A DNA stretch of 63,854 bases, counting the filler, from Welwitschia mirabilis (taxonomy: Eukaryota): the NCBI GenBank assembly GCA_051453625.1. It is 5 parts of one record of this genome, joined end to end, with 100 filler letters (N's around TTAATTAATTAA, not from the genome) between each part and the next. Parts side by side here need not be neighbours in the genome. Positions count along the whole stretch, not along the records: positions 58,454 to 63,854 come from JBOZIK010000001.1; 4 more parts are not named here. The stretch is one strand, 5' to 3'. Shown here piece by piece: positions 14,602-63,854 of this stretch. Below the pieces are notes generated by a model. It was given only the letters and a program-made list of their open reading frames with translations, did not search any database and was not told the origin of the DNA. The stretch's first letter is position 1. Each line of letters starts with the position of its first letter. The position numbers and the translations under genes were made by a program.

Positions 14602-16580
14602 TATTGTACTACCAACTTATATGTATTTGATAGGACATTTGAGTAGTTTTATAGGATATTAGATAGGTTTATGTTGGATTTGTATAATAATGAAGAGCTA
14701 AAAAGAAAGATACAAAAACATGTAATCCTCATTACATTTTATAGCATTTAAGGTAGTTTATAATATCTCTTATCTGAAGTGAAATTCTTGTAAACATTAA
14801 GGCTAATGCAATACATGAAGAACTATTAAAAAACCTATCATTCACCTCATCATCTAGATAACTATACAAACAACAAAACACTTAAGATAATGAAGATTCT
14901 AATTAGAATCAACCTGATAGATGATATGGAATTCTTACGAGGTGGAATCATCTCCTACATCATCTAGAGAACTAGCAAGATAACATCTAAAATAACACTT
15001 TACTAAAATTTACATAACTTTAGCCACTTGCCTCTATGTTTCGTGTACAGTTGTTAGGATTTTGCCCATGCCTATTGGTTTATTTTATTTATGTGTCTAT
15101 TTTTGTTAATAGGTATTGAATCCATTCTCAACTCCTGCTTGTCTTTGTTTGAACTAAAATTCTCATTATAGGATATTAAAGGTTTAAAGATCAATTCATA
15201 ATTGTAAAGAGACCTCTTCCTTAATTTTAGGCTATGCATCCTCTATTAAGATGTGGCTACTTTGTAATATGGATGTTGGTTTAAATCTAATTCAAAGAAC
15301 TCTTTTGCATATCCCTTATAGTTTATGTTACTTATGATTTTGTGACATCTTTTTTAGTGATATAGATTATGAGGGCTATGTTTGTTAAGGCTAAGAATTA
15401 TTAGTTTAGGTACATTATATTTTTTTCCTAGATTATCTTTACATAATTTTATATTTTGTTCGATGTACCTGATAGATTAGGTTGGTCTTGATCTAGTGAT
15501 AGCATTTTTTGATTAATCTAGGCTATACAAAACTGATCTATGTGACAAGATGATCTAGTATTGGATAGAATTTGCACCTAGTTTATATTTGTATTCATTT
15601 GCATAAGTATGTTGCATTATCATTTTTCAAATTGTTTTTTATTTTTGCTTAAAAGATACAAGTGTTTCATTTCTTTAAAATCAATTCTCTTTCTTTTAGC
15701 TTGTGCCTTCAACAAGAATATAACTTTTGGATCACTTCCATCTATCTTAGTATGTTGTGTTATGTAAAATTTATATTTATTTGTGAATGATAGGATCTTN
15801 NNNNNNNNNNNNNNNNNNNNNNNNNNNNNNNNNNNNNNNNNNNTTAATTAATTAANNNNNNNNNNNNNNNNNNNNNNNNNNNNNNNNNNNNNNNNNNNNA
15901 ACATCTTGGCACCATTGCTGAGTAAGACTATTAAGGAGTACAAGGGTTGTCATTATTTGAATGAGTATAACGGACCTCTATTTGATTCTTTGTCTGAGTG
16001 ATGTTTTATTTTATTAGGAGCTATAGGTTTTTTGTGTGTAGACAAACTTTAGATGCATACATTATTTTTTCTAAGCTCACTTTATTTTTAAAACTCAATC
16101 ATCTTTAAGCACCTACCTTCATCTTGAACTAAGATTCTCTTCTTCCCATTCTTCTAAAAAATGAATAGTGATAGAAGAACTTGTATAAAAAGTCTTATTA
16201 AAAGGTGTAAAAACAAACCTGAGGATAATAATAGTAATACACTTCAAGAACTTTTTTCTAAAAAAGAGAAAAAGGAATTTGAGAAAAATGGTAAGAAAAC
16301 ACCTAGAGAGATTTTAGCAGAAAAAGAGAGATCAACATAAAATAATATTGAGAATGGGATTTGGTCCCATTTCTCTTTTTAACCACCTTATTATTTCCCC
16401 TTTTCTTTTCAAAATCCATATAGAACTAATGATGAAAATCTTAGAGGTTCAATCTCATACAATCATTTTTACCCATCTAATCCATATTTCATGAACTACT
16501 ATAAAGAAGAAAATGAAAGGCAATAAGAAGATACCAACGAACACATGAAAAACACCAATAAAAAATTAGAAAATTTGGTT
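14602..16580 (+). mobile_element. Family A element 5' part: LTR (14602-15903, spans a scaffold join), PBS and start of internal region
   Basis: Starts tattgtactaccaactta. LTR end aaca is followed by tcttggcaccattgctgag (15904-15922, tRNA-Asp-type PBS). The interior 16161-16580 is homologous to the minus strand of 45940-46330 and 37150-37620. Confidence 0.75.
15800..15899. other. Artificial scaffold linker (N run, TTAATTAATTAA, N run); also at 35219-35318, 44638-44737 and 58354-58453
   Basis: The same six-frame-stop 12-mer sits in the centre of four 100-bp gaps. Confidence 0.95.
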
Positions 16581-16599
16581 GCTATTGTTTTTGTCTTTG

Positions 16600-17230
16600 A
16601 AAAAAGATCTTGAGGATATGGAGGAAGATTTTACCCATTTCAAAAAAAGACAATCATGGATAAGACACATCATCTTAACCACATTAGCTTTTGTGATATC
16701 AGCTCTAACTTATAAATTTTTTTTAATTTACACCTTACCAACATCTAATTCAAATTTTTTATTAGCATCAGTAGAGTACGAAAAAGTTCTAGTCCAATCT
16801 GTTTTATTTTTAGTTCATGATCAAGTTTACTCCTTGATCAAGCAAAATTAATGTAATTGCAAGTACAAATCTTCACCTATATTAAGTAAGAGTTAGGTAT
16901 GTAAATTTTACATTTTACATCCTTTTGTGCTTTCATGCTCTATCATGTTTTTTCATGCTTTCAGATTCATGGCAAGCTAGCTTCACATAAAATTTTCAAA
17001 ACAAACTTCAGCATTCAGTATCAGAGCTTCTAAGAAGGGGACAAGGATATTAGAAAGAAGGAATTAAAGATAGCTTTTGGTATGAAGGGTAGTTATTACA
17101 ATGGGTTGAAAAGCATTCATCAAGAACTCTCAATAGCCCTTGTTAAATCCTCTTTTTGAGGAAAGTGACCATTCCTATTATAACACTCTTTCGAGTTTAT
17201 AGTAAAAATGTTTTAAGCTAAGTTTTAAGT
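16600..17230 (+). mobile_element. Ty1/copia 5' remnant: LTR-like segment, tRNA-Met PBS and gag N-terminus
   Basis: tcagtatcagagc (~17015-17027; cf. TGGTATCAGAGC) is followed by NPLFEESDHSYY at 17146-17181 (cf. PPLFDGSNYSYW). Confidence 0.5.
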
Positions 17231-17699
17231 AAAAAGATTGTCTTGAAAAGCTGAAAAAAAATCTAAGGAAATGAATCTCTACTCTAATCAAATGCAAATT
17301 ATACTTTGAAGATAATATTAATAAAGAGTTAAAGGGAGTTTCTAATAGGAGAAAAACTCCCAAAAAATAAAGAGATGAAAGTAATTAAAGCAAATGAGTT
17401 AGATTTCCTTAAAAAAATCTACTCAATGAGGAGTCCTTGTACAGAACTTCATGAATTTTGTATAAGAAATTCATGGTTTGTAGAATATAAATTGATCAAT
17501 TAAGCTAAGAGAACCATGATCACATTTATGCAATTACTGGAATTAATAGTGCTAATTTTAAGGTTAAAAAGTAAGGATAGTTGTATAGTTCTAAAATTGT
17601 AGCACAAAAATCCACTTCTACTTTACTAAGCTTCTTATACTATTAACATGCTAAGAGTAATCTATCCTTTAGGAATTTAGTATTTTAATCATTTCTAAA

Positions 17700-18720
17700 C
17701 CGAATTTTTATTTCTCTCTTATATATATATTTGTTTGTTTTTTGAGGAATTAACAAAACCTTGAGCTTAGAGTAACTGATGAGGATAAATTTTAATGTAA
17801 ATTATGATTTATTAAAGAATTGTTTTCATTATCTTAATCATGCATTTTAAATACCAATAGATGTTTTTATTTATTAGTATAATTACTAATCAATAAGTTA
17901 GTTAGTTAGTATGTTAGTAGGTAGTCTGTATGTTTTATTATTATGTTTTAGGTATAGGATATCATATGGCATGAAGATGAAAGAGACGGTTGAGGTGACA
18001 AAAAAGTAGTAACAAAACCCAATCATATACCTATTCCTATGGAGCAAAGAATGGAAACAAAAAAAACAAATAAGGGTATAAGAAGAGGATCATCACCAAA
18101 GATGGAAATATTTTTGACAAAATATTCTAGGAATAGATAGGATAAGAAGATCAAGAAAGGTAGCTCTAGCTATCCTATAAAGGGCATAACAGCATTTTTC
18201 ATAGTCTATAGTAGTACTTATAAAGGAGAACACAAGAATTAGCACATCTTTATATAATAATTGATACTTTAATATAAATATGAAAAGCATATTTTAGTTA
18301 TTAATTGAAAAAGTAATATTATTTGTATTTCCTCCTGTTTTTATAGCTAAACATAAATCAAGTTAATTAATAGTACTTAGAAATAAGTATTATCTAGCAT
18401 CTCATCTAAATTCTATCATGCTTTATTACTTTTATGATCCCCCCTTAATATAATCTATGTACATAGTAATTTAGTAGTAATAAACTAACTTGACTAATTT
18501 AAGCAACTTCATCATGAGACTATTGTGATTATGCATTTTGAACTAAATGGTTGAATCTCAACTATTTCTTTAATAAGCCTTTGGTTATTTTTATGTAATA
18601 GTGTGAGCTTATTTTTAGGTTAAGAACAACATAGTTTCTGCATTTTTCTAGTATTATTTTATATTTTTTAATGTTATTTAGTGATATTTTTATACTTATT
18701 TCACCATATAAGTACCCTCA
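17700..18720 (+). mobile_element. Athila-like 3' junction and LTR of a further family
   Basis: tttgaggaattaacaaaaccttgagcttagagtaac|TGATGAGG at 17777 resembles the Athila PPT/LTR junction. Right boundary uncertain. Confidence 0.4.
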
Positions 18721-20319
18721 TTAATCTATGGAATCAACATTTTATAGAATCCTAGTTTTGCTTGTTCTTCATTAAACAATTTATTTTGTATATCATCAAA
18801 ATTATTGTCTTCCAAACATGGCTTTAATGGTGATTTTCCATAAGTTCCTTAAGTGTCTATGTGTTTTGAATCTCTCTTAGAAATTTTTGTAAACATTTTA
18901 TTTTAGAACATAAAGAAGTCAATATCTTAAAGAAATATTTCTTGTAATTATTCTATTATTTGAAATAATCTTAGCAACATCTAGGTTTTGAAGNNNNNNN
19001 NNNNNNNNNNNNNNNNNNNNNNNNNNNNNNNNNNNNNNNNNNNNNNNNNNNNNNNNNNNNNNNNNNNNNNNNNNNNNNNNNNNNNNNNNNNNNTTATTTT
19101 CAAACCTTATATAATTATAAATAAAAAATATAGTAGGTAAAAAAAAGAGCATTGGAAAAACTCTTATTTTAACAACCATCTTTAACGTTTCATTATTTGA
19201 TTTTTACTTTAAAAACCCTTTCTACTTGAACTAAAGGCATAATTTTGACATTAGTTAATGAGTTTAAAATGTTGAATAAAGAGAGTGATGAAAAAATTGT
19301 TTGAAAAATTAAGAAGTTTCAATATAGAAAACATTTTTGTTTTAAACTTAAAAGTTCAAAGATATAAAATGTCCAGATAAAAAATGTTATTATTATAAGG
19401 AAAGAAGGAATTTAAAATTTTATTATTATTAACCGAAAAAAAAGGAAAGTCTTTGTTGAATAGTAAACTTAAAAATAGGAATGCAATAGTGATTAAAGAA
19501 TATAAAGATAAGACAAAAGACCAAGATCCAAAACCAAGTCTAGAAGAGTTGTGTAGATGTTAAGTATTTATTTGTTTCTTATGATAGAATAAGTATCCTT
19601 ATGATATGTTCTTGTTAAGAATAAGTTATGTAATTAGTTCTTGCATGTCTAGAAGTCTTGCATTTCTATTTTTACTAATATACGAAAGGAATTTTCCAAT
19701 GAAATGATAATTTTTTCTTTTAAAATTTTTCATTTGGAGGTTGGAGGGGCATATAGGAAGAATGATAAGGATGTAAATAATGTTTAAGTTTATTTTTCTA
19801 AATATGTTAGTACACTTGGGAATACCCTTTATGCTCAACATTTACTTAATATTTTCTAGGGGACATTTTTAAAATTTTGTTAGAATACCATAGTGATATT
19901 CATGGTATTATTTTTAAAAATATAATTATAGTTGAAAAACTATTTTATGTATAAAAATTTATAGTTAAAAAATAAATTTCCTTTGATTTTTGTTTCACAT
20001 CTTCTTATACTTTCTTTTATTTCCTCCATATTTCCTTTACTTTTAATAATACTATCACTAAAAAATAAAGTTATCAAACCTATAAACTCCTAATAAAATA
20101 GTATTAACAGATAAGATATCCTTAAATGAGTTTCCATGTAGTTTAAGATCAAGAAAGAACAATCATAACCTAGTATACAATAATCTTAAAAAGACACTGC
20201 TATTGAATATAACCCATATAATATATTTAATAAATAATATAAATCAAATCCAATGCTATTTTTTTTAACTCTACTCTTTTCAAAAATGAACTAAAGCCTC
20301 TCTTAAATCTAGATAAGAA

Positions 20320-20770
20320 ACCCCTTTGGACATATACTTACAAAGTGGGATTCCAAAAGAATAAAATAATTTAGTAGTTCCATTTAAAATAGTCTTTTTC
20401 TATTAATCATTATTTAAACAACATCCTCCCATGCCATACACAAAGTTTATTATAATGAACTCACCAAATCATACTATCTTTAAGGTCTAATTTGTGGAAC
20501 CACTACATGGCTAAGCCAACTTATTAAGGATATAACATACCTATACAACTCTATGTATTTACTTCATTCTTTTATTACCCTTGTTTTAACTATGGTAAAA
20601 GGTTATTGTAACATTTCATAAGAGTCATGGATTTTCATTATTAATTATAGTACATTCTTCAAGGATCATATCCCTTAAATGCCTGTTTACTTCTTTATAA
20701 AAAACATGAGATTTGTAATTTACAAATATAAAACTTGATAGCACTTTATCATGGAAAAAAGAGATTATGA
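20320..20770. repeat. Dispersed ~450-bp repeat, copy 1
   Basis: Collinear with 24600-25045; shared blocks include aaaataatttagtagtt, tattaatcattat, ttttaactatg-taaaaggttat and catatccctt. Confidence 0.85.
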
Positions 20771-22186: not shown

Positions 22187-24420
22187 GTACTTATGGTTAT
22201 GTGGGATTCCTACTTAGAATAATAACACTCCCTTGTATTAAAAGCTATCTTATTTTTTATATAAACTAATGATGTGGACTATGTAAATCCTCATAGGTCA
22301 TATGAACTATGTAGTTAGAACAATAACATCCCTGAGATTAGAAAATACATTATTTATTCTATAAAATAATGATGTTAACTCTATTAATTCCTATGGGCTA
22401 TAAGAACTACCTAGTTAAAATAGTTGCATCCTTCTATGTTGAAAACTACTACATATACTCCATAGATTACTGATTTATAATCTATGATTCCTTATGGATC
22501 ATATGGGTTAATAATCAAAATAGTAGTATAACCTTATGTTGGAAACTAGCTTATTTTGTCTATATACTTATGATGTAAATTATATGGATACTTGTGGGTT
22601 ATATGGACTACCTAGGTAAAACAATAATATCCTCTTATATTGAAAGCTACTTCATTTATTCTATAGATTGATGATGTGAACTCTTTGATTTCATATGAGG
22701 TATATGAACTACATCGCATTCCATCATGTTGGAAACTACCTCATTTGATCTATAGGCTAATGATGTGAATTCTATGAATTCTTATTGGTCATATGGGTTG
22801 CCTAGTTAGAATAGTGACATTCCTTATATTGGAAATTACCTCATTTTCTTTAAAGATTAATGTTGTGAACTCTGTGAGTCCCTATGAATCATATGGTCTA
22901 TCCAGTCATAGCAATAACATCTTCTTATGTTGAAAATACCTTATTTTCTTTGAAGACGAATGATGGAGACATTGTGGATTCTTTTGACACATATTAGCTA
23001 CCTAATCAAAATAGTAATATCCCCTTATGTTGAAAAGTGCCTTATTTACTTCATGAACTAATGATGTGGATGTTGTGAATCCCAATGGGGCATATGAGCT
23101 TTATAGCAAGAAAAATGATGTCTTCTTATGTTCAAAACTATCTCATTTGATCTGTATACTCCTGATGTAAAATCTATGAATTCTTGTGGACCATAAGAAT
23201 TGCCTAGTTAAAATAGTAATGTTTACTTATATTAGAGATGGTCTCATCTACTCTGTAGACTAATGATCTAAACTTTGTAAATTCATATGAGTTATATGGA
23301 CTTTTTAGTCAAAATAAGAATTCCTTCTTATGTTGAAAAGTACCTCTTTTGCTTTATAGACTAATAATGTAAGAGTTTGAATTCGTATGGATTATATCCC
23401 TAGTCAAAATAATGGCCTCCACATATGTTGAAACTGTCTCATTTTTTAATAGACTAACAATGGGAGCTTTCTGAGTTCCTCTGGTTATATGGACTACCTA
23501 TTTACAATAGTGACACATTGATATGTTGAAAACTAACTCATTTAATTTATATACTAATGATGTAGACTTTGTGAGTTCCTATGGATCACAAGGATTTCTT
23601 AGTCAAAATAGTGATACCTAAAATAGTGATATCTCCTTGTATTGAACACTACCTCATTTAATCTATAGACTAATGATGTGGACTCTATGANNNNNNNNNN
23701 NNNNNNNNNNNNNNNNNNNNNNNNNNNNNNNNNNNNNNNNNNNNNNNNNNNNNNNNNNNNNNNNNNNNNNNNNNNNNNNNNNNNNNNNNNNNNNNNNNNN
23801 NNNNNNNNNNNNNNNNNNNNNNNNNNNNNNNNNNNNNNNNNNNNNNNNNNNNNNNNNNNNNNNNNNNNNNNNNNNNNNNNNNNNNNNNNNNNNNNNNNNN
23901 NNNNNNNNNNNNNNNNNNNNNNNNNNNNNNNNNNNNNNNNNNNNNNNNNNNNNNNNNNNNNNNNNNNNNNNNNNNNNNNNNNNNNNNNNNNNNNNNNNNN
24001 NNNNNNNNNNNNNNNNNNNNNNNNNNNNNNNNNNNNNNNNNNNNNNNNNNNNNNNNNNNNNNNNNNNNNNNNNNNNNNNNNNNNNNNNNNNNNNNNNNNN
24101 NNNNNNNNNNNNNNNNNNNNNNNNNNNNNNNNNNNNNNNNNNNNNNNNNNNNNNNNNNNNNNNNNNNNNNNNNNNNNNNNNNNNNNNNNNATATGAACTA
24201 CCTAGTCAGAACAATGATGCCTCCTTATGTTGAAAACTACCTTATTTACTCTATAGACTAATGGTATGGACTCTATGAGTGACTAGAAGCTATATGGACT
24301 TCCTAGTCAAAATAGTAGAGTTTTTTTAATGCTAAAAACTATTTCATATACTCCATAGACTAATGACATGGACTTTGTAAATTCCTATGAGTATTATGGA
24401 ATATCTTGTCAGAACAATGG
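22187..24420. repeat. Degenerate tandem array, ~100-bp unit, at least 17 visible units, interrupted by a gap
   Basis: Approximate consensus ctacctagtcaaaatagtgacatcccttatgttgaaaactacctcatttactctatagactaatgatgtggactctgtgaattcctatgggtcatatgga. It recurs at ~22205, 22305, 22405, 22506, 22606, ... 23590, 24196 and 24296. Confidence 0.95.
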
Positions 24421-32058: not shown

Positions 32059-35000
32059 TGTTATGATGTGTATTTTTGTAATCCTTTTTACTTTGATAAA
32101 TCATAATAATCACAACAGATATATATTATAAAATACACACTCTAGTATNNNNNNNNNNNNNNNNNNNNNNNNNNNNNNNNNNNNNNNNNNNNNNNNNNNN
32201 NNNNNNNNNNNNNNNNNNNNNNNNNNNNNNNNNNNNNNNNNNNNNNNNTTGTAATCCTTTTTTCTTTGATAAATCATAATAATCACAACAGATATATATT
32301 ATAAAATACACACTCTAGTATGAATGGGAGTGATTCAAATGTTGTAACCCACTAAAGACTTATGAGAGAAGAATGCGAATTGATTTCCAGAGAAATATCT
32401 TATTCTAAATTTAAGAATAATCCAAGAAAATAAATTTATAAGAGAACGCAAATGTAATCTAACCTAAATAAACCCCTCTTTGAGTAGTGAATTAATGTCT
32501 CAAGAAGATTGGCCCTGTATATCATAGANNNNNNNNNNNNNNNNNNNNNNNNNNNNNNNNNNNNNNNNNNNNNNNNNNNNNNNNNNNNNNNNNNNNNNNN
32601 NNNNNNNNNNNNNNNNNNNNNNNNNNNNNNNNNNNNNNNNNNNNNNNNNNNNNNNNNNNNNNNNNNNNNNNNNNNNNNNNNNNNNNNNNNNNNNNNNNNN
32701 NNNNNNNNNNNNNNNNNNNNNNNNNNNNNNNNNNNNNNNNNNNNNNNNNNNNNNNNNNNNNNNNNNNNNNNNNNNNNNNNNNNNNNNNNNNNNNNNNNNN
32801 NNNNNNNNNNNNNNNNNNNNNNNNNNNNNNNNNNNNNNNNNNNNNNNNNNNNNNNNNNNNNNNNNNNNNNNNNNNNNNNNNNNNNNNNNNNNNNNNNNNN
32901 NNNNNNNNNNNNNNNNNNNNNNNNNNNNNNNNNNNNNNNNNNNNNNNNCTGTTACTCAACATGCACTACAAAACATACTAAATTCCAAGAAAGAAATAAA
33001 TGAAATGGACAAAGGTCAGATGATTGTTATGAGTGTTATCCTATCTGTTATGAAGATAACTAAGGGGATATTGGCTCAAAAATTACATTCATCATCCTAC
33101 ATGTCATGAGGATGAACATGGGGATGCCACCTCTTTAGAAAGGATGAGTCAGCAGTACCAACTCTAGTCCATGTTAGCATTTCCATATGGAATCTATAGT
33201 GCGATCATCCTATCTATTATGGGGACAATGGAGGGTATGACCATTCTATTTATCTTTTTAACTTAAAATAAGTATTTTTTTACATTAATGATGTTCCTCT
33301 AAATCCATATGTATTAGAATATGCCTAAAATGCCTATGAATATGCCAATAATTGCACTTTTTTGTGATAGTCTATCAATTCTTCATAGTCCTTAAAATTG
33401 TATATAAACCTGTATAAATGCCCCACAAAATAGCTCATAACACTACATCAAATATATACAAGTTTGTACTACATTATAGCCTTGCACTTAGCTTTTGTCA
33501 GTCTCTGATAAAAACTAGGAAAACAACTATAATTGTGAGTTAAATTACTTTAAACAAAATCAATTAAGAAATTATAAAATAGGCTTACAAATAATCTTAA
33601 ACACATCACATAAAAATAGCATGCAACACATCATATTTATGAAGTGAAAATTGCAAAAATCATGTCTTATGAAAGCTTTGAAATAACTCAAAAATTTATA
33701 AAAATGAGACATAAAAAAGAATCCTGCCTAACCCTCCTTCCCTTGAGAAAAATAATACATCTCATATTGGTTAGTGAAGCAAATAAATCAGACGAAAATG
33801 AGAAGTGGATGTTGGGTGTTATTAAATTTTGACAACTAAGAAATTAAGTGTAAAGCTGAGTGGAGAAATGTTAGATTTCAAAAAGAAAGATGTCAGAAAT
33901 ATTCTGATAAACATGAAAAATGTAAACAATGAAAATGCAATGAAGTGGATCCATGAGTACTCAACAAATGTGCCTTCATAAAAATTATTATGAACATTCT
34001 TTAAAACTACAAAAAGACTGAAAATGAATAACACAAAATTTACAAAGAAACTTATCTAATCAATAAATCATCTCTTTATTGAAAACTAGATAAGAAAATC
34101 ATTAAATGTTAAGATTTTAACATCTTAAAAAAATAAGGGAATGACTTTGAAATAACTAACTGAACAACAAAAGAAAACAAAAATAATGGACATAAGGAAA
34201 CATAGAGAAGATAGCCTACCTACCCTAAATTTTAGTCTAGCAAATGCCTGTGAAAGAAATCATAACATCACTTAATTAAAATTGCATGAATAAATGTATA
34301 ATTTTATAACTTTCCATTCTATAAGGTATTTTTTATGATGATGATAAAAATCAAATGCTTTAAACAATAAATGATAAGATCAAAAAGTTGTTAAAAAATG
34401 AACTCATTTGTTTACATCTCAAAACAAACACCTAAGTCCTTATTAATGAAATGATCATATACAAAGGCTAATAGTCTAGGAAATAAGAAATGCCTTCAAT
34501 AATATCAAGAACATCACTAATATCATAGCCTCAAAGTTTTTATTATTATTTTATTATCTATGATGAAGAGAGTGTAACCATAGTTAGAGAACCAAGAACC
34601 TATGAAGCATGGCCAACTAACCTCCTAGTGAAGTTCTTATAGCTACCATACTACACCTTCAAAGGATCCTCTTGGGAAAAGTTACCCCAGTGTACTTATG
34701 ATAGGACATGGTAACCATGTTTTTGAAATCTCTTACATATAAGACATCATGATCTTATTTCACTTTTTTTGTTTTTTCACAATAAAAAAAACATTCCACA
34801 TGATCAAACGAAGCAATAAGATAAGAGACAGAAAAAACAAAAAAAAAACACTCTTAAACAACCTAAGACCTTTGCATCATTGAGGAAAACATTATAAATA
34901 AAGCATCTTCCTTTAAAACAAAGTTTATAAATGTGTAAATGTCTTAATATTTAATGAATCCAATTTTATGACTATAAAATATCCAAGTACAAAGACTACT

Positions 35001-38000
35001 CATAAAAATAAAATAAATACATAAGTCATGTTTGAAAGATGATCAAGTAATGTCATAATGGCATTAAAAGAAAAAGTTAAAAGAAAATTTAGACAATGCT
35101 AAAAAAGAAATCCTTCTCATCAAGGGAAACCTCTAAGGTTAGTGCTTCTATCATGTTTATATTAGAAGGTTGCTCCTATATTTTTAACCTTTGTCCATTA
35201 AATTCTAAATTTATTAAGNNNNNNNNNNNNNNNNNNNNNNNNNNNNNNNNNNNNNNNNNNNNTTAATTAATTAANNNNNNNNNNNNNNNNNNNNNNNNNN
35301 NNNNNNNNNNNNNNNNNNGAATCTTTTTATCATTCAACTCAAGATATAGATTTTCAATAAGAAAATGAGACTTTTTCATTTAGCATGACTAATAAAATTT
35401 TGTCTTCATAAGATTTAGCAACAATATAACAGATAAAAAATTCATATAACTCATGGATAAATAATCTCTTATAAAACTCATGATATAAAGGATTTGAAAC
35501 ATAAATTACATGCAAAGCTTGATATTGAACATAGAAGGGTATTATTTAGGATTCAAGGATTTGTAATAAATATCTTAGGGTGAGTGATTAATAAAAATAC
35601 CTAAGAAGCTCCTTAGCATTTAATTCTTAGCATGAATTTGGATCAAGAAGATAAGATTTGCCCCAATTTAGAGTTCCAAGATATTTCAAGTCTTATTTTT
35701 AAAAAGGTTAATCATTGAAAGGATAGGGTAGAGTTGAGTTTGTAAAATAGAAAAATATGTTACTATTTGTAGCACATAAAATTTTAAAAGAAAAAGATTG
35801 AGAGATTTTTAAAGTAGACTCCTCAAGGTGATTAATTTCAAGGATAGGGATGTGAATTGAAGAATTACTTGAATGTTCAAAAGGGATTAAGGGAAAAATT
35901 TTATCATTATTAAGATCACAAGTTAATGCCAAAATAGAAGTAGAGGAGTAATGTCATTTTAGGTTTTTTATGAAAGAACAAGTGAAAGAGATGGAGAAAC
36001 ATGTAGAGACCCTTTAAGTTGGTATTTTTCATTGAAAGATATAAGTATATTCTCCATTAAGTTTATTTTATTTTCTAGTGATTCTTATCTATTCCTTTCC
36101 TTCTCATTGTTGACTTCATCATTACTTAATTGAATGCTATCTTTACTTTCTTCATTATGTTCTTTAATTATAATTCCCTCTTTTTCATAATCTTATAGAT
36201 ATCATTGCTTATATTTTGCTCTTNNNNNNNNNNNNNNNNNNNNNNNNNNNNNNNNNNAATGATTATTGTTTTGTTGATGATTATTTTTCCTTTCTAAATT
36301 GGTGGATTCCTGAAAAAGATCATTAAAAAGATTATAAAAATAAAATTTATCATTGTCTTCATCATGTGATGGAATATTTTCTAATATTTACTAAGTTTCC
36401 TCTTCTTCCTTTCTATTGAATAATTTTATTAATTCTAAACTATAATCCTCATTTTTAGTTATTGAATTACTCTTACTAAGTTGACTCTTCTTCACTGANN
36501 NNNNNNNNTCTAATATTTCAATTTTATCATCATCTTCTTCTTCATCATTCTTGTCATCTTATTACATGTTATTATTTTTTAATTCATTAGAAGGAGAACT
36601 GCGATAATTATGTCTATCATAGATTAATAAATTTTTAGAGTTTTCATAAGTGGATTATTCATTTGGGTTGTCTAGCAGTAAATGGATGCTCAAGATATAG
36701 TCTAATACCTCAATATCATCATCTAATAAATAGTCATCCTCATCCTTATTGTTGAAAGGTTGAGTTGAGTTATCATTTCTCCCCTTCACTCATCTCCTAA
36801 TGAGTAGGATATTGAAGTTTGATTTAAAATTTCATCTTCTATTTGAAAGAAAGAATTATTATCATTTANNNNNNNNNNNNNNNNNNNNNNNNNNNNNNNN
36901 NNNNNNNNNNNNNNNNNNNNNNNNNNNNNNNNNNNNNNNNNNNNNNNNNNNNNNNNNNNNNNNNNNNNTTTGAAAGAAAGAATTATTATCATTTATTTCT
37001 AAGTTATCCTCATTTTCATCAAGATAGGATGAAGTAGAATAGGTTTGAGAATGTTGTATAATAAGAGAATCTTGATTTTGTAATAGTATTTGTTGTAACA
37101 TTTTAATCAAAGTTTCTAGTTTGTTATTGGAATTTTCTAGGATTTTAATGGAATTTTCTAGTTTTTCATTTATTTCATTAATCATTCCTTTAATTGAATC
37201 ATTTTCTTCCTCATAGTAGTTAATGAAAGATGGTTTTTATTCATAGTAATTAATAGGAGATGAATGGGATTGATAAAAATGATTGTGAGAAGTTTGTCTA
37301 AATTAGGCAAAATTCCTAAAATGTGAAAAATTTTCATTGTTATTTCTATATAAAGTTTGAAAATAAGAGGGGAAATAATAAGAAGATTAAAAAGAGGAAT
37401 GAGTCTAATTTCTACTCTTAACATCATTTTGTATTGTTCTCCCTTGATCTGCAAAAAATTCTCAGAGAGTTTTCTTACTATTNNNNNNNNAATTTTTTAA
37501 GTTTCTTCTTCTTTTTGCAAAAATCTCTAAAAGTCTTTGATTACTATTATCCTCAGAATTTTTCAAGTTTCTCCTCCTTTTCACAGGAATCTCCTCAAGG
37601 GTCCATGTATCACTATTTATTGCAACAATTAAGAATGATAATAATGAAACAAAAAAATCAAATTCAAAATGAGAATAACTATAGAGTAAAGATTGAGTTC
37701 TACTTTCTTTAATATTTCATCTTTTTATTAAAAATTGTTTGGATCCTTAATACTTAGAAAACAAATGTATAATGGCTATCATTTTCTAAATTATATTCTA
37801 AAAACGTTTCTTTCATAGAATTAAATTTAGAAAAAAAATGGACTTTGAAGGGGTATTGTACACACCTAGAGATTGAGTACCTAATTTTATCTCAAAGCCA
37901 ACTAGTCCTTCTCTGATGTTTCCTCTATTAGTAACCCTTTTATCTTATACTTATTTTTTGGATTAACCATGCCACATCATCCTATAGATAAAAAACAATA

Positions 38001-39779
38001 GAACATGAAATAAAAACAACTAATATTCATCCTTTTAATCATAGGGATAACTGAAAGGATGACGAACACAGAGAGTAAAAATAGAGAACAAAAATTTAGT
38101 ATAAATCCAAAAGCTAAAAATAGACCATTATTCTTATGGTTGTGTGGACGATACATGGGATGATGAAAAACTAATTATTACAAACTAACAATTATTGTAA
38201 TCTAAAAACAAAAAGTCAAGAATAAAAATAGACAGATCGTCTACCTTGTCATGGGAATGATAAAGGATACAACAATTATTTAATTATTAAAATAAAAATT
38301 AAAATAAAGATTTATAGAGATAGAAAATAAATGGAGAAACTATCATTTACAGTGTCATAGAGATGATAGATAGGATTATAGACTATTATTCTAGACTAAA
38401 AAAATAGAAAACTAAAAACTATAAATATATAAATCCTAATTATAAAATACAATATTACTATAGATAAATAATCAAACAAAAATCCAATTTACTCACTTGA
38501 ATTATGAAAATGCTCCTACTCCTTAGTAGCCTTCCCTAGTAATGGTGCTAAGATGTTGCAATGTGTATTTTTATAATCTTTTTTATCTTGATAAATCCTA
38601 ATAATCATAGTAGATATATATTGCAAAATACACACTATAGTATGAATGGAAGTGACCCAAATGTTATAACCTATCAAAGACTTATGAGAGAAGAATGAGA
38701 ATTGATTATCATAGACTTAAGAATAATGTAGAAAAATAAATGTACAAGGTAATGAAAATGCAATCTAACCTAAATGATCACCTATCTGAGTATCGAACAA
38801 TGTGTCAAGAAGATTGACCTTGTATAACCTAGATCAACTAAGGATATTATTACTAACTAAGATTAACTTAAGCTATCAGGTAAGTCTAATAAATTGTAAT
38901 GAAAAATCAATATAAAATTGCTTTCTTCAATCTTAACTAAGGCTACTCTTAAGACCTATCATCAATGAAACTACAACTAGATCAAGGAAAACATAAACCA
39001 TAAGGGTAATATAACAAAACTAAATGCACAAATGAAATAGAGTCTTATATTAAATTCAAACCAGCATCTGGGTTACAAAATAGCCAAGCCTCAATGAAGG
39101 ATGCACAACTCTTCACCTAGGGAACATCTTTCTACAACTCATAAGATGGATCTCTTGCGTTTCAATCTACTATCACGAGAATGTCTGGTGCATCGAATAT
39201 GGATAAGAAAGTCAAAGGAGGGATTTATTTGTACAACTCAGAAGGCAAAACCACCACTTAATATGGACTATAAAACCTACTTAATTCTAAGAAAGAAACA
39301 TATGAAATAGGCAAAGATCACCTAATGGTTATGAATGTCATCTTACTTATCACGGAGACAACCAAGAGGATGATGATTCAAATGTTAAATTCATTGTCCT
39401 GTATGTTATGGGGATGACCATGCAAATGATACCCTTTTAGAAAGAATGACTTAGTAGTACCAGCTCCATTTTACATTATCATTCTCATGTGACATCTACA
39501 GTGCTATCATCCTACATGTCGTGGGGACGAAAAAGAAGACAATAGTTCTTTTTGTCTTTTTAACTTAAGAGAATCATTTCTTTTACCCTAGTGATCTTCC
39601 TCCAAATCCATGTGTATTAGAATGTGTCTAAAATGCCTTTGAATATGCCAAGAATTATACATTTTTGTGATCATCTATCAATTCTCCATAATCCTTAACA
39701 TGACATCTAAATCTATATAAATGTTATGTAAAATAGCTCATAACACCTCATCAGATACATACAAATTGACAGCACATCA
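32059..39779 (-). mobile_element. Complete non-autonomous Athila-like LTR element (family A, LARD-type) with TSD ATGAT
   Basis: LTRs at 32059-33476 and 38554-39779 with TG...CA outer ends. Flanks 32054-32058 and 39780-39784 are both ATGAT. PBS tagcaccattactagggaa at ~38532-38550 and an Athila-type PPT junction at 33477-33510. No pol motifs seen. Contains gaps, including a scaffold linker. Confidence 0.85.
35708..37620 (-). pseudogene. Decayed N/E/S/Y-rich internal ORF of family A
   Basis: ORF fragments 36862-37185 and 35708-35932; homologous to fragments 45364-46128 and 16161-16580. Confidence 0.55.
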
Positions 39780-44637: not shown

Positions 44638-44737
44638 NNNNNNNNNNNNNNNNNNNNNNNNNNNNNNNNNNNNNNNNNNNNTTAATTAATTAANNNNNNN
44701 NNNNNNNNNNNNNNNNNNNNNNNNNNNNNNNNNNNNN

Positions 44738-47700
44738 TAATCATTCAAAGTGCAAGTTAGAGTTGGCTTTGCAAAATAGAAAAAGATGTTACTTTTTTAA
44801 GCACATGAAGTTTTCAAAGAAAAGGATTGGGAGGTTTTTAAAGTTGAGTCCTCAAAGTGATCTGTTTTATTAATTTTAAGGAAGGATGTGATTTAAAGAT
44901 TTACTTAAATGTTTAAAAGAAATAAAGAAAGAGAGTTTATCATTATTAAGATCACAGGGTAATGTAGAAGTAGAAGTAGAAGAAAGGATATCATTTAAGG
45001 TTTTGCAAGGAAGTAGTAGTGAAAGAGATGGAGAAACATGTAAAGACTCTTTAAGTTGGTTTTCATTAGAAGGTATAAGCCTATTCTTTATTAACTTTAT
45101 TTGATTTTCAATTGATTTTTTTAATTCCTCTTCTTTTTATTATTAACTTCATCATTACTTAGTTAAATACTCTCTTCCTTGATCATATCTCCCTCTTCTT
45201 TATTATTGATATCATTGATTGTGTTTTGCTCTTTTATTTGTTTTGTTGAGGATTATTTTTCTTTTCTAAGTTAGTGGATTCCTTAAAAAGATCATTAAAA
45301 AGACTATAGAAAGGAAATCTCTCATTTTGTTCATTATGTGATAAAATATTTTCTAATATTTCCTTATTTAATTGCTCTTCCTCTCTGTTGAATAATTCTG
45401 TTAACTCTAACTATAATTCTTATTTCTAGTGATTGAGTTGATATTACTAAGTTGACTCTTTTCATTGATTTTGGCTCATTACTTATCTCCATTAATGTCA
45501 TAAGTTGAGCTTCTTTTAAAGGTGGAATGACTTCATCCTTATAAAGTAAGTGAAAACAAGAAATATGATCTAATATTTTAATATCATTTTCATCTTCTTC
45601 TTCATCACTCTTGTCATCTTCTTGCATATTGTTAGATTTATTAGAAGGCAAAATGCAATTATTATGTCTATTGTAGATTAAAAAATTTTCAGGTTTTTCT
45701 TGAATGTATTCTTCATCTAGTAAATGAATTTCATGAATATAATCTAACACATCAATATCATCATCTCACAAATGGTCATCATCATTTTTATTGTTTAAAG
45801 ATAGAGTTGAATTGTTATTTTCTCCCCTTTTATCATTTCCTAATAAATAGGATGTTGAATTTTGATTTAAAATTTTGTTTTTGTTTTGAAAGAAAGAATC
45901 ATAATCATTTATTCTTAAGTTTTCAACCAAATTATCTATGTTTTTATTGGAAATTTCATTGTTCTTTCTCATTTTGTCAATCATTTCTTTTATTGGATTA
46001 TTTTCTTCCTTATAGTAGTTAATGGATGATGTTTCTTCTTCATAGTAATGCATGGGAGATAGATAGAATAGATAAAAGTGGTTGTATGAGGTTGAATCCC
46101 TAAGATTTTCATTGTTATCCCTATACAAAGTTTGAAAAGAAGAGGGGAAATAATAAGATAGTTGAAAAGAGGAATGGGCTTAATGCCTAATATCAACATT
46201 ATTTTTTATTTTTCTCCCTATTTCTACAAAAATTTCTTAAAGAATTTTCTCACTATTATTCTTAGAGTTTTTTAAGTTTCTCCTTCTTATCTCAAAATTT
46301 TTTTAAAGTATCCTTGTATCACTATTCATACTTAAGAAGAATGAAAAAAAAAAATCTAGTTTAAGATTAAGATAAGTTCACAGTAACAGTTGAGTTCTAA
46401 TTTTTTTAATGTTTTAACAAAAATGAATTCAAAAGAGATATTGTATGCACTTAAAGATTATGTTCTTGATTCTATTTTAAAGCCAACTAATCTTTCTCTA
46501 ATATTATCTTCTATTAGTAGTCCTTTTTCTCTCATATTTCTTTTTCTAAACTGATCATGTCATAGCATCATATAACCAAAAAATAATATAAAAACAATAT
46601 AAAAATAACTAACTATCATCTTATATATCATGGGAATGATGGAGGGGATAAAACACATAAGAATAAGAAAATAGAAGTATAGCATAACAGAAACCAAAAG
46701 CTAGAAAAACATAAGTTGTCATCCTCTTAGTCATCTAGATGTTAAAGAGGAAACAAAAATTTGGAAACAAAAACTAAAATCATAAATTGTCATCCTAAAT
46801 ATTATCAGGACAACAAAGGAGATAATGATTATTTTTCTACTGAAACTGAAACTAAAAATTTGCAAATAAAAAATCTATGGTTCTTAATTAAAATACAACA
46901 TTACTATGGATAAATAATCAAATGAAAATCCAATGTACTCATTTGAACAATGATAATCCTTGTGCTCCTCAACAACCTTTCCTAGCAATGGCGCCAATTT
47001 ATTGTGGTATGTATTTTTGCATGCATACTCTAGTATGAATGAAAGCGACCCAAATGTCATATCTCATTAAAGACTTACGAGAGAAGAATAAGGATTGATT
47101 TTCACAAGTATATGTAACTAAAATTTAAGAAAAATGCATGAAATAAAGATGCAATGCAAATGCAATATAATTAAATCTAAATGCAATGCAAAATAAATCT
47201 AAACTACTTTCTTTTAGCCTTAATAAAGGCTACAGTTAAGACCTATATCATTAATGAAACTATCATTAGACCAAGGGTAACATAGACCATAAGGGACATC
47301 TAATAAAACTACATGAATAAATGAAAATAGAGTTTTATATTAAAAGGNNNNNNNNNNNNNNNNNNNNNNNNNNNNNNNNNNNNNNNNNNNNNNNNNNNNN
47401 NNNNNNNNNNNNNNNNNNNNNNNNNNNNNNNNNNNNNNNNNNNNNNNNNNNNNNNNNNNNNNNNNNNNNNNNNNNNNNNNNNNNNNNNNNNNNNNNNNNN
47501 NNNNNNNNNNNNNNNNNNNNNNNNNNNNNNNNNNNNNNNNNNNNNNNNNNNNNNNNNNCTTTAAAGCATACTTCATTATAGAAAAGAAACGGACAAAATG
47601 GTCAAATGTCAATTGTCAGTTACAGTGGCATTCCTGGCTAGCATCTAGTGACCAAGGGGATGATGGCTCTTTATAAAACATGACTCAACGATGCTAGCTC

Positions 47701-48013
47701 AGCATCCACATGAGCATCTAGTATGGCATGAATAGTGTTGTTATCCTAGCTATCGTGGGGATGATCAAGGGGACAATAGTCTTCTTTATCATTTAAGTAA
47801 GAAGAAACTAGCTTTTTCCATCAGTAATATTCCTCCAAAAGCCATGTATATTAGAATGTGCCTCAAATGCCTCAAATCTTACTAAGAATTGCACATTTCT
47901 GAGATCTTTCATTGATCCTCTAAAATCCTTAGAATTGCATTTAAACTTCTGTAAATTTCATACAAAACATCTCATAAAACCCCATTAAGTACACATAAAT
48001 TGATAGCACATCA
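44738..48013 (-). mobile_element. Partial family A element: 5' LTR 47000-48013, PBS and internal decayed ORF
   Basis: Minus strand starts TGATGTGCTATCAATTT. PBS TGGCGCCATTGCTAGGAA at 46996-46979 (cf. tRNA-Asp PBS TGGCGCCGTTGCCGGGGA). Interior collinear with 35709-38550; includes ORFs 45364-45750 and 45766-46128. Confidence 0.88.
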
Positions 48014-58353: not shown

Positions 58354-58453
58354 NNNNNNNNNNNNNNNNNNNNNNNNNNNNNNNNNNNNNNNNNNNNTTA
58401 ATTAATTAANNNNNNNNNNNNNNNNNNNNNNNNNNNNNNNNNNNNNNNNNNNN

Positions 58454-59299: not shown

Positions 59300-61495
59300 G
59301 ATTTCTCTCCTTAACCACCTAAATTTTTGGTCGATCTATGCTTAGAAACTTATGAAATCAAATTTCGTTTGCTAAATTTAAAGTTATGAGTATTTTCTCC
59401 TAAAATTTCATGTTTTTCACTTTTTGGAGTTTTATACTCATTATGCACTTAATTCATAGTAGTTTTTGCCATGTTAAATATCAAATTAATTCTTATTTCA
59501 TTATCTATGATTTGATTCTTATGGGAGAGCATTTAGTTACCTATAAATAAAGTTATGAATATTTTTCCTTTTTCCCTTAATAGGGCACATATCTATTTTT
59601 TTGGATTTCTTTATATAGTGATATAAGTGCATCCTCTTCTTGAACCCACACACGCTCTATTGCTGCCTGGGGAATAGAACAATGGGAATGAGATACTGTT
59701 CTATAGAAACAAAAGCATAGCCTTGCTTCTGCCATTTACTAGAGAAAGATGCACTTCATCAACTATATTCAAAGGCTTAAGCCTGACTTAGATCATGCAC
59801 TAGAGGAGCTTGGTATTTGAGGATAATTATTACATACTCATGGCTTTTACTATGAGATGGATATTATTTAGTTTTACTAGACCTTTGAGATTATNNNNNN
59901 NNNNNNNNNNNNNNNNNNNNNNNNNNNNNNNNNNNNNNNNNNNNNNNNNNNNNNNNNNNNNNNNNNNNNNNNNNNNNNNNNNNNNNNNNNNNNNNNNNNN
60001 NNNNNNNNNNNNNNNNNNNNNNNNNNNNNNNNNNNNNNNNNNNNNNNNNNNNNNNNNNNNNNNNNNNNNNNNNNNNNNNNNNNNNNNNNNNNNNNNNNNN
60101 NNNNNNNNNNNNNNNNNNNNNNNNNNNNNNNNNNNNNNNNNNNNNNNNNNNNNNNNNNNNNNNNNNNNNNNNNNNNNNNNNNNNNNNNNNNNNNNNNNNN
60201 NNNNNNNNNNNNNNNNNNNNNNNNNNNNNNNNNNNNNNNNNNNNNNNNNNNNNNNNNNNNNNNNNNNNNNNNNNNNNNNNNNNNNNNNNNNNNNNNNNNN
60301 NNNNNNNNNNNNNNNNNNNNNNNNNNNNNNNNNNNNNNNNNNNNNNNNNNNNNNNNNNNNNNNNNNNNNNNNNNNNNNNNNNNNNNNNNNNNNNNNNNNN
60401 NNNNNNNNNNNNNNNNNNNNNNNNNNNNNNNNNNNNNNNNNNNNNNNNNNNNNNNNNNNNNNNNNNNNNNNNNNNNNNNNNNNNNNNNNNNNNNNNNNNN
60501 NNNNNNNNNNNTCATGGCTTTTACTATGAGATGGATATTATTTAGTTTTACTAGGCCTTTGAGATTATCTCAACCACTAGGGAGGACGACTCACGTTATG
60601 ACCAGATCAAAGCCACTGTAGGAGGACATTACATATACATTGAGCCATAGCACATCACAATAGTTATAAGGGTTCTTAAAGATGGGGAGAGGATTGATCT
60701 TGATAGAGGTGAGTCAGAGAAGCAAACCTATGTTGTCCAGCTAGAGTTATCATATCATGTAAATGATGATTGGTGAGGGGTGGTTGTGACATATTTACCT
60801 TCATATTACCATATCCTTCACCAAGCCATTATCTATAACATAGCTCTAGTTTGTCAAAACTCGCATGCTACGATTGCCCATCTTTAATTTTAGCCCTTAT
60901 TCGTAATGGAGAGAGGATAAACTTAGCTATCTGTATTTGGTGTTGATTGAGATGGATGAGCACCCAATTCTGATTTTCTACCATTACCTATCCTTGTCTA
61001 CTGAGTGCTTTCTTTTGACGATTCAAGATCCCTATTCTAGTAGAGACTCCTCACTCAGTCCACATATCAGTTGATCATACTATTTTAGGTGATTGGGGAT
61101 ATAGATCCATGCTATGGATCCACTGGCTCTTGGTGAGGCACTTGCAGCACAGCCCCCTTCCCCCGTACAACCTCAGGAAGTTGGAGGTGTCACCTTAGAT
61201 CAGTGCATGACATTATTAGAAGGAATGGAACAGAGATTATCTTCACAGATAGAGGATCTTTATGGTATCATTACCACATGACCCGACAAGTTAAAGGCAC
61301 ACATTCATGTTATAGAGGAGAAGGATCGAGCTACCTTGGAGAGGGTGATAGATATTTAGTAAGATACTTTAGTGGGCATCTCTGAGGTGGTTCATGTCCA
61401 TCACAATGTGACCACATCTAGTCTATGAGAGCACATCTCTCACTACTTTCCAGATATTGAGGAGCCTATCATTAAGCCACCTATAGAGACAAGTG
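59300..61495 (+). repeat. Dispersed repeat copy 2 (homolog of 4480-6060), cut at 61495
   Basis: Collinear similarity to copy 1 stops where the CACTA-like terminus begins. Confidence 0.7.
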
Positions 61496-61716
61496 CAATA
61501 TAAGGAATTGGGGCTTTTAAGGCATTTATTTAAATAAACGCCTTAGTTATAGGAAAATTTAAGGCGTTCATTTCTTTTAACGCCTTGGATTAGAAAACTT
61601 TAAGGTGTTTCATAAATAAACGCCTCAAAAGCTCGTCGTGTTACTTTGTTAAGGCGTTGTTTAATAAACGCCTTAAATGTTTTGGATCTTTTATGGCGTT
61701 TAAGAATACAAATGCC
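61496..61716 (+). mobile_element. CACTA (En/Spm)-like terminus: degenerate TIR plus palindromic subterminal repeats
   Basis: caatataaggaa at 61496 (cf. CACTACAAGAAA). Five inverted pairs taaggcgttt-N-aaacgcctta follow at ~61518, 61560, 61601, 61650 and 61692. Confidence 0.75.
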
Positions 61717-61721
61717 CACGC

Positions 61722-61912
61722 GTTTCCAAAAACAAAACTACCACGCATTTCTTATGAAGACACAGTGTGCAGGGGCTGCTTTCTACATCGAATCGGCTTT
61801 CTCTCGGTCTCCATTATGTGTTCCCAAAAACAAAATTATCATACATTTCTTATGAAAACACAGTGCATGGGGGCTGCTTTGTGCATCGAATCGGCTTTCT
61901 CTCCATCTCTAT
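61722..61912. repeat. Two-copy tandem duplication, 98-bp period
   Basis: aaaaacaaaa...catttcttatgaa-acacagtg...ggggctgcttt...catcgaatcggctttctctc begins at 61728 and 61826. Confidence 0.92.
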
Positions 61913-62015
61913 TTCAGGTATTTTTCATTTTTGCTTTTGCTTTTAGAGTTTTTAGTCTCAAACTAGTTTTGCGATTAGTAGAGTTATCCTCAATGTATTG
62001 ATTTAGATCTCGGTA

Positions 62016-63096
62016 ATGACCAAACGTGAGAATTCCCTGGCCTTGAGAGAGCACGATGGAGGGATAATTGTGGACCATGGTTTTAGGGTTCAGGCAGCTA
62101 CTTCTATACTTTGTAAGTCACTTGTTTCATTTTAGGTAGTAAATTGTACTTGTGATTGAGCTATTTTTGCAAAATAAAATGTTTGTAGTTGTGCTGCCTA
62201 CATAAATGCATTTGTAGCGATGTACAAAAAGAACACGGGCCATCCCCTTGTGGAGCTTGTGCACATTGTATGATTTCTTGTTCTTTCATTCATTCTCTTT
62301 AATTTGTCAATTACCTTCCTTGACATTTTCATGCTTGAAAATTTAGTGCCTTTTTGCCTCTCCATCAATATCTTTTAACAAAAAGGTTAGATTGTGAAAA
62401 TCATAAGCAAATTTTTCTTAGTTTTCTTAGAACACAAGCAATATTTTTCTTAGTAAACTCTCTTTACATCATCATTTTAATTCATGCTATGAGTATTCTT
62501 ACAAGTATTTCGATGTCGCTAAATTCATAACAGGAGCTGACATAGCTAAATATTAAAGAAGCATTCGATGTGGCTGTTAATCAAGGTGCTGAAAGAGTAA
62601 TTATAAGTCCCTATTTTCTGTCTCCTAGAGGCCATTGGAAAAAAGTTGTGGCTGCAATTTGAGTTTTCTTTTCGGGAGCAGTCCTTTTCACACAATTCAT
62701 ACTGTGCAGCGTCATTTTTAGACATTGATACAGGAAAGCTTTACATTTTTCTTATAGACAATCTATAGAATTTTTCTCTGTGGACACCTATAAAATTTGT
62801 TGGCATCTTCCTGGCCAGGCTTCTCTTTATAAAAGAGAGACAAAGATCTTTGTCTTATTGCACATTTCCTGGGTCATGCATCTTTTTAATAGGGTTTAGA
62901 TATTACAAATGAAGATCTGGTACAGTTGGGCATGTCACAGTTGGGCATGTCTATAACAATTGGTTCCTTTTAAACCTCTTTTCATGTTATTGTTTGATAT
63001 CTTCATATCTCATCTGTGGCTACTAAAGATTTAAAGGATCATCCTGATTTTTCATATGTTGTCACAACACCTATTAATCTTCATAATCTTATGTTG
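62016..63096 (+). pseudogene. SIRB: Sirohydrochlorin ferrochelatase (SirB, CbiX family) intron-containing pseudogene, four exons
   Basis: Exon 62016-62112 MTKRENSLALREHDGGIIVDHGFRVQAATSIL|gtaagt. Exon 62206-62267 AFVAMYKKNTGHPLVELVHI|gtatga. Exon 62534-62644 cag|ELT*LNIKEAFDVAVNQGAERVIISPYFLSPRGHWKK|gt. Exon 63004-63096 HISSVATKDLKDHPDFSYVVTTPINLHNLML|gtaagc. Collinear with plant SirB (IIVDHGSRR...TGYPIVEPAHMELAEPSIKDAF...QGAKRVVVSPFFLFPGRHW..DIPSL...TAPLG). One in-frame stop and two damaged acceptors. Confidence 0.88.
62922..62951. repeat. Perfect 15-bp tandem duplication in SirB intron
   Basis: acagttgggcatgtc occurs twice in tandem. Confidence 0.9.
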
Positions 63097-63854
63097 GTAA
63101 GCATGTATATTTTTAGACATAATTAATTTACAACCCTTAACTTTGCTACATTCAAATAATATAATGTTAATTGTTACATATAAAAGCTACAATGAAACAC
63201 CGCTATCCTATGAGTATAGGACCACATATGTGATAGAGATCATGTAAGGTAAATATCAGTGATTAAAATCTTATCATCCTTAAATAGAAAGAATTGCAAG
63301 TCATAAACAAAACACTATCTCTCTCAATTTCAAACAAGAAAGGGTCTTAAATGGGCTAATGAAATGCATATAGAATCCAAAACAAAAAAAACACAGGTTT
63401 AGATATTAATAACTAGAATAAAAACTAAATACAATAACATGAACTATTATTTAATCCTTTAAATTTTTATCAAAGATGGAATCATTTCTAATCTATAAAG
63501 CAGATACACGTAATCAGCATTCTCTTAAAGAGGTAAAGCCTCAAGCAAGAGGGAACCCTCTTTTTTGGATGATGCTATGTATGTAACCAGTAGTTTACAA
63601 ATCTAGAATGCCTTTGCATGGTTGTTTTACAAGAGTATAAAACATGCATACTAATGCTTCAAGATTGAAGGCAAACTAATATGCTCTATAATGACTGAAA
63701 TCATGGCCTAACATATGTACCAATATGGGCTAAGTATAGCTTAAAATGTGTGTCACAAAAAAGGTTTATGTAGAGATTTAAAAGTTATTTTAAAGGTGTT
63801 TGAACTTAAAATTCTAGTTTTGAGTTTTAACAATTTACTAATGTCATAGTAATC

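Follow-up and report, generated by a model that had tools for sequence, protein, structure and literature searches.

How does a piece of a housekeeping gene come to lie directly behind what looks like the end of a DNA transposon? The capture of gene fragments by CACTA elements is well known, and siroheme is needed by sulphite and nitrite reductase. The question arises at the right end of a 63,854-nucleotide stretch of Welwitschia mirabilis DNA (assembly GCA_051453625.1), which we refer to as the window. An original prediction, made from the sequence alone, proposed that a Pack-CACTA transposon begins at position 61496 and carries an intron-containing copy of SirB (sirohydrochlorin ferrochelatase, CbiX family). 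We asked whether the terminus is a genuine CACTA end, whether the gene copy is the plant's working SirB gene, and whether the two belong to the same mobile element.

Results

The flanking host repeat

The window is very AT-rich (17-32% GC per 2 kb), contains 28 runs of N in its draft sequence, and is filled with old repeats of 65-84% mutual likeness. A frame at 14240-14662 has the look of a gypsy-type reverse transcriptase, as judged by eye only. The left flank of the candidate element consists of the following features:

59346-61492, plus strand: old unclassified host repeat, homologous to 4529-6052, with an N gap at 59895-60511
61493-61495, no strand assigned: GTG, the predicted 3-bp target-site duplication, of which the window holds the left flank only

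Two parts of the host repeat could be aligned with its other copy by blastn and MAFFT, namely 59346-59856 with 4529-5041 at 65% identity, and 61328-61492 with 5888-6052 at 71% identity. The likeness ends at 61492, as would be expected from the prediction that homology breaks exactly where the element starts. The exactness, however, should be interpreted with some caution, since the two copies are ~30% diverged and the position of the break is good to a few bases. Moreover, an open frame common to both copies also terminates at the break. Given this divergence and the shared end of the frame, the break alone is no proof of an insertion.

The host repeat was without any family in a Pfam scan, and the 49 open frames of at least 65 aa in the window gave no Pfam match at E ≤ 0.01. 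Consequently, the proposed setting in retrotransposon-rich chromatin is loosely supported: the old repeats that fill the window agree with it, but none of the 49 frames has a significant match that would identify them.

A decayed terminus of a high-copy family

Three features make up the left end of the candidate element:

61496-61511, plus strand: decayed CACTA-type terminal inverted repeat; CAATATAAGGAATTGG in the window, with CACTA restored by the family consensus
61512-61716, plus strand: subterminal region with five palindromes, which are inverted pairs of TAAGGCGTT-like 9-10-mers
61518-61545, 61560-61587, 61601-61627, 61650-61675 and 61692-61716: the palindromes, inverted pairs with a spacing of 41-49 bp

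At 61496 the window reads CAATATAAGG, with CAATA instead of CACTA. Taken alone, CAATATAAGG is weak evidence for a terminus, because the 12-mer pattern is frequent in AT-rich DNA; with up to two mismatches, 54 matches were observed in the window versus 36.7 expected. None of these 54 matches to the short terminal-repeat pattern stands out as a second terminus.

We aligned contigs of two DNA runs (X1 and X2) and raw reads of two RNA runs (X14 and X17) to positions 60512-63854 at 80% likeness. These are runs with the same species label or runs containing the window sequence; part of the window is contained in 13 of the 24 public runs listed, with no RNA run among them. In X1 and X2, one contig each differs from the window by 2 differences in 305-327 bases, and the window locus itself is therefore present in both runs. 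Contig counts and summed depths derive from low-coverage assemblies and serve as a rough guide to copy number.

The match to the window sets in at 61499 in 58 contigs of X1 and in 72 contigs of X2. The left flanks of these contigs agree with each other at 0.43-0.45, which is the level of AT-rich noise, and in both runs their consensus ends in CAC. Together with the TATAAGG of the window, this CAC yields the family terminus CACTATAAGG, from which the window copy departs by one changed base in the CACTA signature. The predicted decayed CACTA-type repeat at 61496 is thereby borne out: the CACTA start exists at the family level and has decayed in the window copy. The CACTA terminal repeat of Arabidopsis, as given in the part of the rice and maize catalogue available to us, is CACTACAA (PMC8903248).

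Further groups of 36-112 contigs each begin to match at 61512-61515, and ends resembling ACTATAAGAAA or ACTACAAGAAA (ACTAYAAGAAA-like) occur in their flanks. These groups look like sister subfamilies of a CACTA-like family. Matches end at 61545, the close of the first palindrome, in 89 and 131 contigs, and 50 contigs run on past 61552 with another palindrome unit. The summed contig depth is 3,290-20,746 over 61408-61631, ~200 over 61632-61743, and 15-170 further right, including SirB, with a fall of ~15-fold at 61632, inside the palindrome zone. The CACTA-type end belongs to a high-copy family, and of the terminus only the outer ~135 bp are clearly common to this large family. From these data, we judge it highly probable that the terminus at 61496 is the end of a CACTA-family element.

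Subterminal palindromes

Direct and inverted short repeats at close spacing characterize the subterminal region of CACTA elements (PMC8978399, in the part of that study considered here), and short repeats of this type are present at 61518-61716. The core motif of the palindromes is TAAGGCGTT/AACGCCTTA, and within the window the array of five is confined to this segment, in agreement with the five subterminal palindromes first proposed. When one mismatch was allowed, half of the 18 window matches to TAAGGCGTT (9/18) fell within 61518-61700, as did all four exact matches, and a total of 18 matches was reached in none of 100 shuffles. As single-stranded DNA, the palindrome stretch folds with a z-score of -5.23, which was equalled in 0/200 shuffles. 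The palindromic repeats are presumably putative transposase-binding sites.

Two other candidates were rejected. First, neither 61496-61716 nor 61496-61632 constitutes a complete miniature element, as judged by eye, insofar that the first 19 bases lack an inverted copy at either right border. Secondly, matches to the palindrome pattern at 119 metagenome loci contain a single hairpin each, and their likeness to the window is a 31-38-bp pattern only; these loci are unrelated to the window element and most likely ordinary hairpins.

A SirB copy made from DNA

The SirB copy comprises four exon pieces and a trailing intron:

62007-62112, plus strand: SirB-like exon A, preceded by AG at 62005-62006 and followed by GTAAGT at 62113; approximately residues 60-85 of conifer SirB (tblastn)
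62206-62267, plus strand: SirB-like exon B (tblastn); acceptor destroyed, donor GT fits
62534-62644, plus strand: SirB-like exon C, the CbiX core (Pfam CbiX), with an in-frame TAG at 62543-62545
63005-63097, plus strand: SirB-like exon D (tblastn); donor GTAAGC intact, no AG acceptor in the ~25 preceding bases
63098-63854, plus strand: intron-like sequence to the window end, with no next SirB exon within the window

The first exon thus starts 511 bp inward of the terminus, close to the ~520 bp originally given, and the SirB copy is cut off by the window end at 63854. Searches by tblastn with Taxus SirB and 119 other plant SirB proteins (the best 120 of 1420) returned the four pieces in order, covering approximately residues 60-179 of the 214-aa Picea SirB; no C-terminal SirB match was found in the window. 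Among these best 120 of 1420 protein matches, the top scores belonged to three conifer-type proteins (140-142 bits, versus 134 for the best angiosperm), and the plant's own SirB protein was absent. Exon C was the one of five translated pieces to match Pfam CbiX (PF01903; E = 1.5e-5, 25.7 bits, cut-off 22). With its stop written as X it matched Taxus SirB at 67% identity (one match among four candidates), or at 73% by tblastn, and solved structures gave weak CbiX matches only (E = 0.2-0.3).

RNA reads clip at 62009, 62111, 62551, 62643, 63005 and 63097, and the joint from 62643 to 63005 is carried by 17 reads in X14 and by 32 reads in X17. The borders derived from RNA fit AG and GT dinucleotides in the window at exons A and C and at the donors of exons B and D, and the SirB exon borders accordingly coincide with splice junctions of an expressed SirB mRNA. 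The four exon pieces are separated by retained introns, as predicted. Since introns are retained, the copy was made from DNA and not via spliced RNA.

The SirB copy is not the working gene

The window copy agrees with SirB in the order of its exons and in the placement of its introns. This would also suit a native SirB gene in syntenic position, with part of a transposon in its promoter. We rejected this explanation as extremely improbable. Exon C is interrupted by the in-frame TAG, and it encodes PRGHW instead of the conserved PGRHW. Exons B and D have each lost the splice acceptor; at exon B, positions 62203-62205 are TAA in the window, as against the CAG that would result from the C (for T) at 62203 and the G (for A) at 62205 in other copies and RNA reads. 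Neither a 20-base mRNA motif from just upstream of exon A nor a 21-base mRNA motif from just downstream of exon D has a window match at up to three mismatches, and the absence of the upstream motif means that the first coding exon, with the start codon and the targeting peptide, is missing. Hence, the copy contains a CbiX domain, but not a complete open frame with usable splice sites.

The RNA reads come from another copy. None of 262 reads in X14, and one of 352 in X17, are at least 99% alike to the window copy, whereas 259/262 and 349/352, respectively, are less than 95% alike. At the exon places 62053, 62566, 62573 and 63058, among those listed, essentially all RNA reads carry another letter. 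The exonic RNA thus represents a different, expressed SirB, as befits DNA captured from a gene at another chromosomal site. The window copy itself is dead and fragmentary, and it is other than the working gene. Compared with the RNA, the window copy has A/T where the RNA has G/C at 82 places versus 27 of the reverse in X14, and at 110 versus 37 in X17. Compared with the other DNA copies, A/T-G/C changes are balanced (272 versus 321 in X1). The drift toward A/T relative to the expressed SirB may reflect deamination of a silenced repeat.

Several diverged copies

At the intron place 62437, another letter is present in 11 contigs of X1 and in 10 contigs of X2, with a depth of 78.5 versus ~6 for the window allele. 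At the other places listed, 1-9 contigs differ from the window copy. SirB-like DNA, introns included, is therefore present in roughly 4-12 diverged copies at a likeness of at least 80%. The presence of a normally single-copy housekeeping gene in several intron-bearing copies points to a mobile carrier, and the multi-copy segments are consistent with amplification by a mobile element.

Linkage between the terminus and SirB

Whether the CACTA end is that carrier depends on the zone between the palindromes and exon A, in which two further features were found:

61717-61722, no strand assigned: structural seam between transposon-derived and other DNA, seen as a contig break and a 37-letter replacement
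61722-61815 and 61820-61913, plus strand: tandem duplication with a 94-98-bp unit; the units are 84% identical

Among the matches listed, one 454-nt contig, which comes from another SirB-like copy, aligns to 61717-62011 only, and its 150 letters leftward are without fit. At least one copy is therefore without this subterminal region at 80% likeness. Also among the matches listed are a contig that spans 61717/61722 with 37 other letters between, and a joint from 61712 to 61872 that skips 61713-61871, found in one contig in X1 and one in X2, where the shorter side is 48 letters. These bridging contigs indicate that the junction between the palindromes and the SirB-upstream zone is present at more than one locus. 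Two further joints (61526 to 61773 and 61544 to 61847) are anchored by just 21-25 letters on a side and could have arisen by chance. With respect to the sharing of terminus and insert, the matches listed include two contigs that connect the terminus zone with the SirB zone and one that does not. The linkage that would show the terminus and SirB travelling together is thin.

These observations bear directly on a competing explanation, in which truncation or aberrant excision of a CACTA element left its 5' end stranded at 61496-61716 (~220 bp), where it happens to adjoin a SirB pseudogene. The pseudogene would then have spread along another route, for example by segmental duplication, with a Helitron or a MULE, or inside a retroelement. 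We regard this explanation as a real though less than even prospect. It would account for the seam, where one contig loses likeness and another has the 37-letter replacement, and for the drop in depth from thousands to ~200 at 61632. Such remnants do arise: a 264-bp 5' fragment of a Pack-CACTA element left after aberrant excision has been observed directly in Arabidopsis (PMC6379663, in the part available to us). Furthermore, the left CACTA end alone is present in the window, which ends inside the SirB copy. However, the joint from 61712 to 61872 (X1 and X2, 48-letter side) and the contig across 61717/61722 connect the palindromes to the SirB-upstream zone, and because these contigs come from other copies, the junction has been copied more than once, which argues against a stranded remnant. 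In addition, the sequence from the seam to exon A (61717-62007) shows no further transposon terminus, and the CACTA end points toward SirB, as a capture model requires.

Transposase content

No transposase-like frame was found in 61496-63854. The original statement that no transposase is visible up to the window end is correct, and it concerns the 2.36 kb scanned. A long autonomous CACTA element with transposase genes to the right of the window, and with SirB as a captured fragment in its 5' part, is an unlikely but conceivable alternative to a Pack-type element. Full-length CACTA elements of Chenopodium carry 5' captured fragments upstream of their transposase (PMC8978399, in the part considered here), and the 2.36 kb are the only part of the present element that is visible. 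Positive evidence for an autonomous element is lacking, however, as 0/49 window frames of at least 65 aa match a transposase family. Since SirB is still running at the window end, any transposase would have to lie beyond the remaining SirB exons.

Discussion

On balance, our results favor the interpretation that a decayed CACTA element, either Pack-type or autonomous, carries a captured SirB fragment, and that its left part occupies the window from 61496 onwards and continues past 63854; we hold this to be somewhat more probable than its negation. Three observations point to this CACTA element as the carrier. First, the interior of the end faces SirB. Secondly, no other terminus lies between the two. 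Thirdly, their junction is present at more than one locus. The proposal of a Pack-CACTA element with captured SirB is sustained in part, by a CACTA-type end, retained introns, a copy that is not a working gene, and multiple copies. Our results add a reservation insofar that the linkage is thin, and that one contig loses similarity at 61717.

According to this interpretation, a 5'-truncated fragment of the genomic SirB gene would have been captured at the DNA level by a CACTA element. The fragment would then have multiplied together with the element, by means of a transposase acting in trans or encoded further right. The window copy would have inserted into an older repeat and would since have decayed as silent DNA.

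Some RNA reads cover the intron places 62120-62205 with at least 12 differences from the window copy. It could be speculated that SirB-carrying CACTA derivatives form a still-transcribed subfamily that directs small RNAs onto the single essential SirB gene, although we consider this improbable. If true, such a transcribed SirB-CACTA subfamily would make the "epigenetic conflict" of captured fragments with their donor genes testable in a concrete example.

If the Pack-CACTA reading holds, this locus would be another example of how a DNA transposon can multiply and disperse a segment of a housekeeping gene within a large plant genome; the general picture of gene capture is unchanged by it. For annotation, SirB-like matches of this kind are to be treated as dead transposon cargo and not as members of a gene family. 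The palindrome-rich terminus could moreover serve as a query with which to look for its transposon family.

The comparisons with known systems that follow refer to parts of the published texts. Pack-type elements of all TIR superfamilies have been catalogued in rice and maize, and the part of that catalogue available to us contains no mention of gymnosperms (PMC8903248). We found no dissected gymnosperm Pack-CACTA element in the literature so covered; the supplements of genome surveys may list captured donors, possibly including SirB.

The closest parallel is with the Pack-CACTA elements of Arabidopsis thaliana, which were defined and observed moving by Catoni et al. 2019 (PMC6379663). Like these, the window element has, in its visible part, a CACTA-type terminus and chromosomal gene DNA in the place of a transposase. 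The Arabidopsis elements likewise form small families with common terminal sequence, and their fragments come from genes elsewhere. They differ in that both termini (26 bp conserved), 3-bp duplications and movement are documented for them (PMC6379663), whereas the window element is represented by one decayed end, its mobility is long past, and its host, also a seed plant, is another species with very AT-rich DNA.

The excision remnant of 264 bp described in the same study (PMC6379663) resembles the ~220-bp end in the window, which also has a TIR and subterminal repeats joined to other DNA. Such a remnant, however, would not be co-copied with neighbouring DNA, whereas the junction in the window seems to recur at two or more other loci.

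In full-length CACTA elements of Chenopodium (PMC8978399), as in the window element, the gene fragment follows the subterminal repeats at a distance of a few hundred to a few thousand bases from the 5' end. The Chenopodium elements encode a transposase, and the window element is compared with them from its left 2.36 kb.

Among gymnosperms, ~400,000 transposon-captured gene fragments per genome were reported in a comparative study centred on Platycladus (2026, PMC13477047). The SirB copies of Welwitschia, as putative captures, resemble these in being transposon-borne, multi-copy and silenced fragments of donor-gene exons. The Platycladus study (PMC13477047) is a genome-wide statistical survey, whereas we have dissected a single locus.

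RNA reads and a tandem duplication at the SirB copy

The 93-bp intron at 62113-62205 in the decayed SirB copy is covered by RNA reads, with 16 reads from X14, one of the two RNA runs, at position 62120 and 14 at 62153. Each of the X14 reads over this intron carries at least 12 differences from the window's copy. Either the expressed SirB, a separate paralogue, often keeps this intron, or another SirB-like copy is transcribed unspliced.

Between the subterminal palindromes and the first SirB exon lies a further repeat:

61722-61913, tandem duplication of a 94-98-bp unit, 84% identity

A few RNA reads fall on this tandem duplication (depth 1-3), and the aligned DNA contigs showed that 61713-61871 is absent from another genomic copy. 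The duplicated sequence may be an intron of the donor gene, an untranslated exon or transposon DNA.

Other repeats in the window

At 17-32% per 2 kb, the GC content of the window is very low. Gaps of 44 N recur in pairs with 12 bases between the two, for example at 15800-15899, 35219-35318, 44638-44737 and 58354-58453, and look like an artefact of assembly or masking. Elsewhere in the window the following features were recorded:

14240-14662, open frame of 140 aa, judged by eye to resemble a gypsy-type reverse transcriptase at its beginning
22188-24420, decayed satellite-like tandem array, period ~100 bp, copies 60-74% alike, with a gap of 500 N breaking the array at 23691-24190
32249-33464, 38571-39767 and 47008-48013, a ~1.2-kb unit present three times, at spacings of 6.3 and 8.4 kb
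6584-7752 and 11451-12692, direct repeat pair ~4.9 kb apart, 74-77% alike

A Pfam search of the open frame gave no match even at E <= 1, which illustrates how strongly the coding repeats of the window have decayed. The DNA between copies of the ~1.2-kb unit is likewise similar (70-79%), with 35709-39054 resembling 44738-47344. This arrangement looks like two old tandem long-terminal-repeat elements with a common middle repeat, or like a duplicated block. The direct repeat pair may represent an old, short retroelement's two long terminal repeats.
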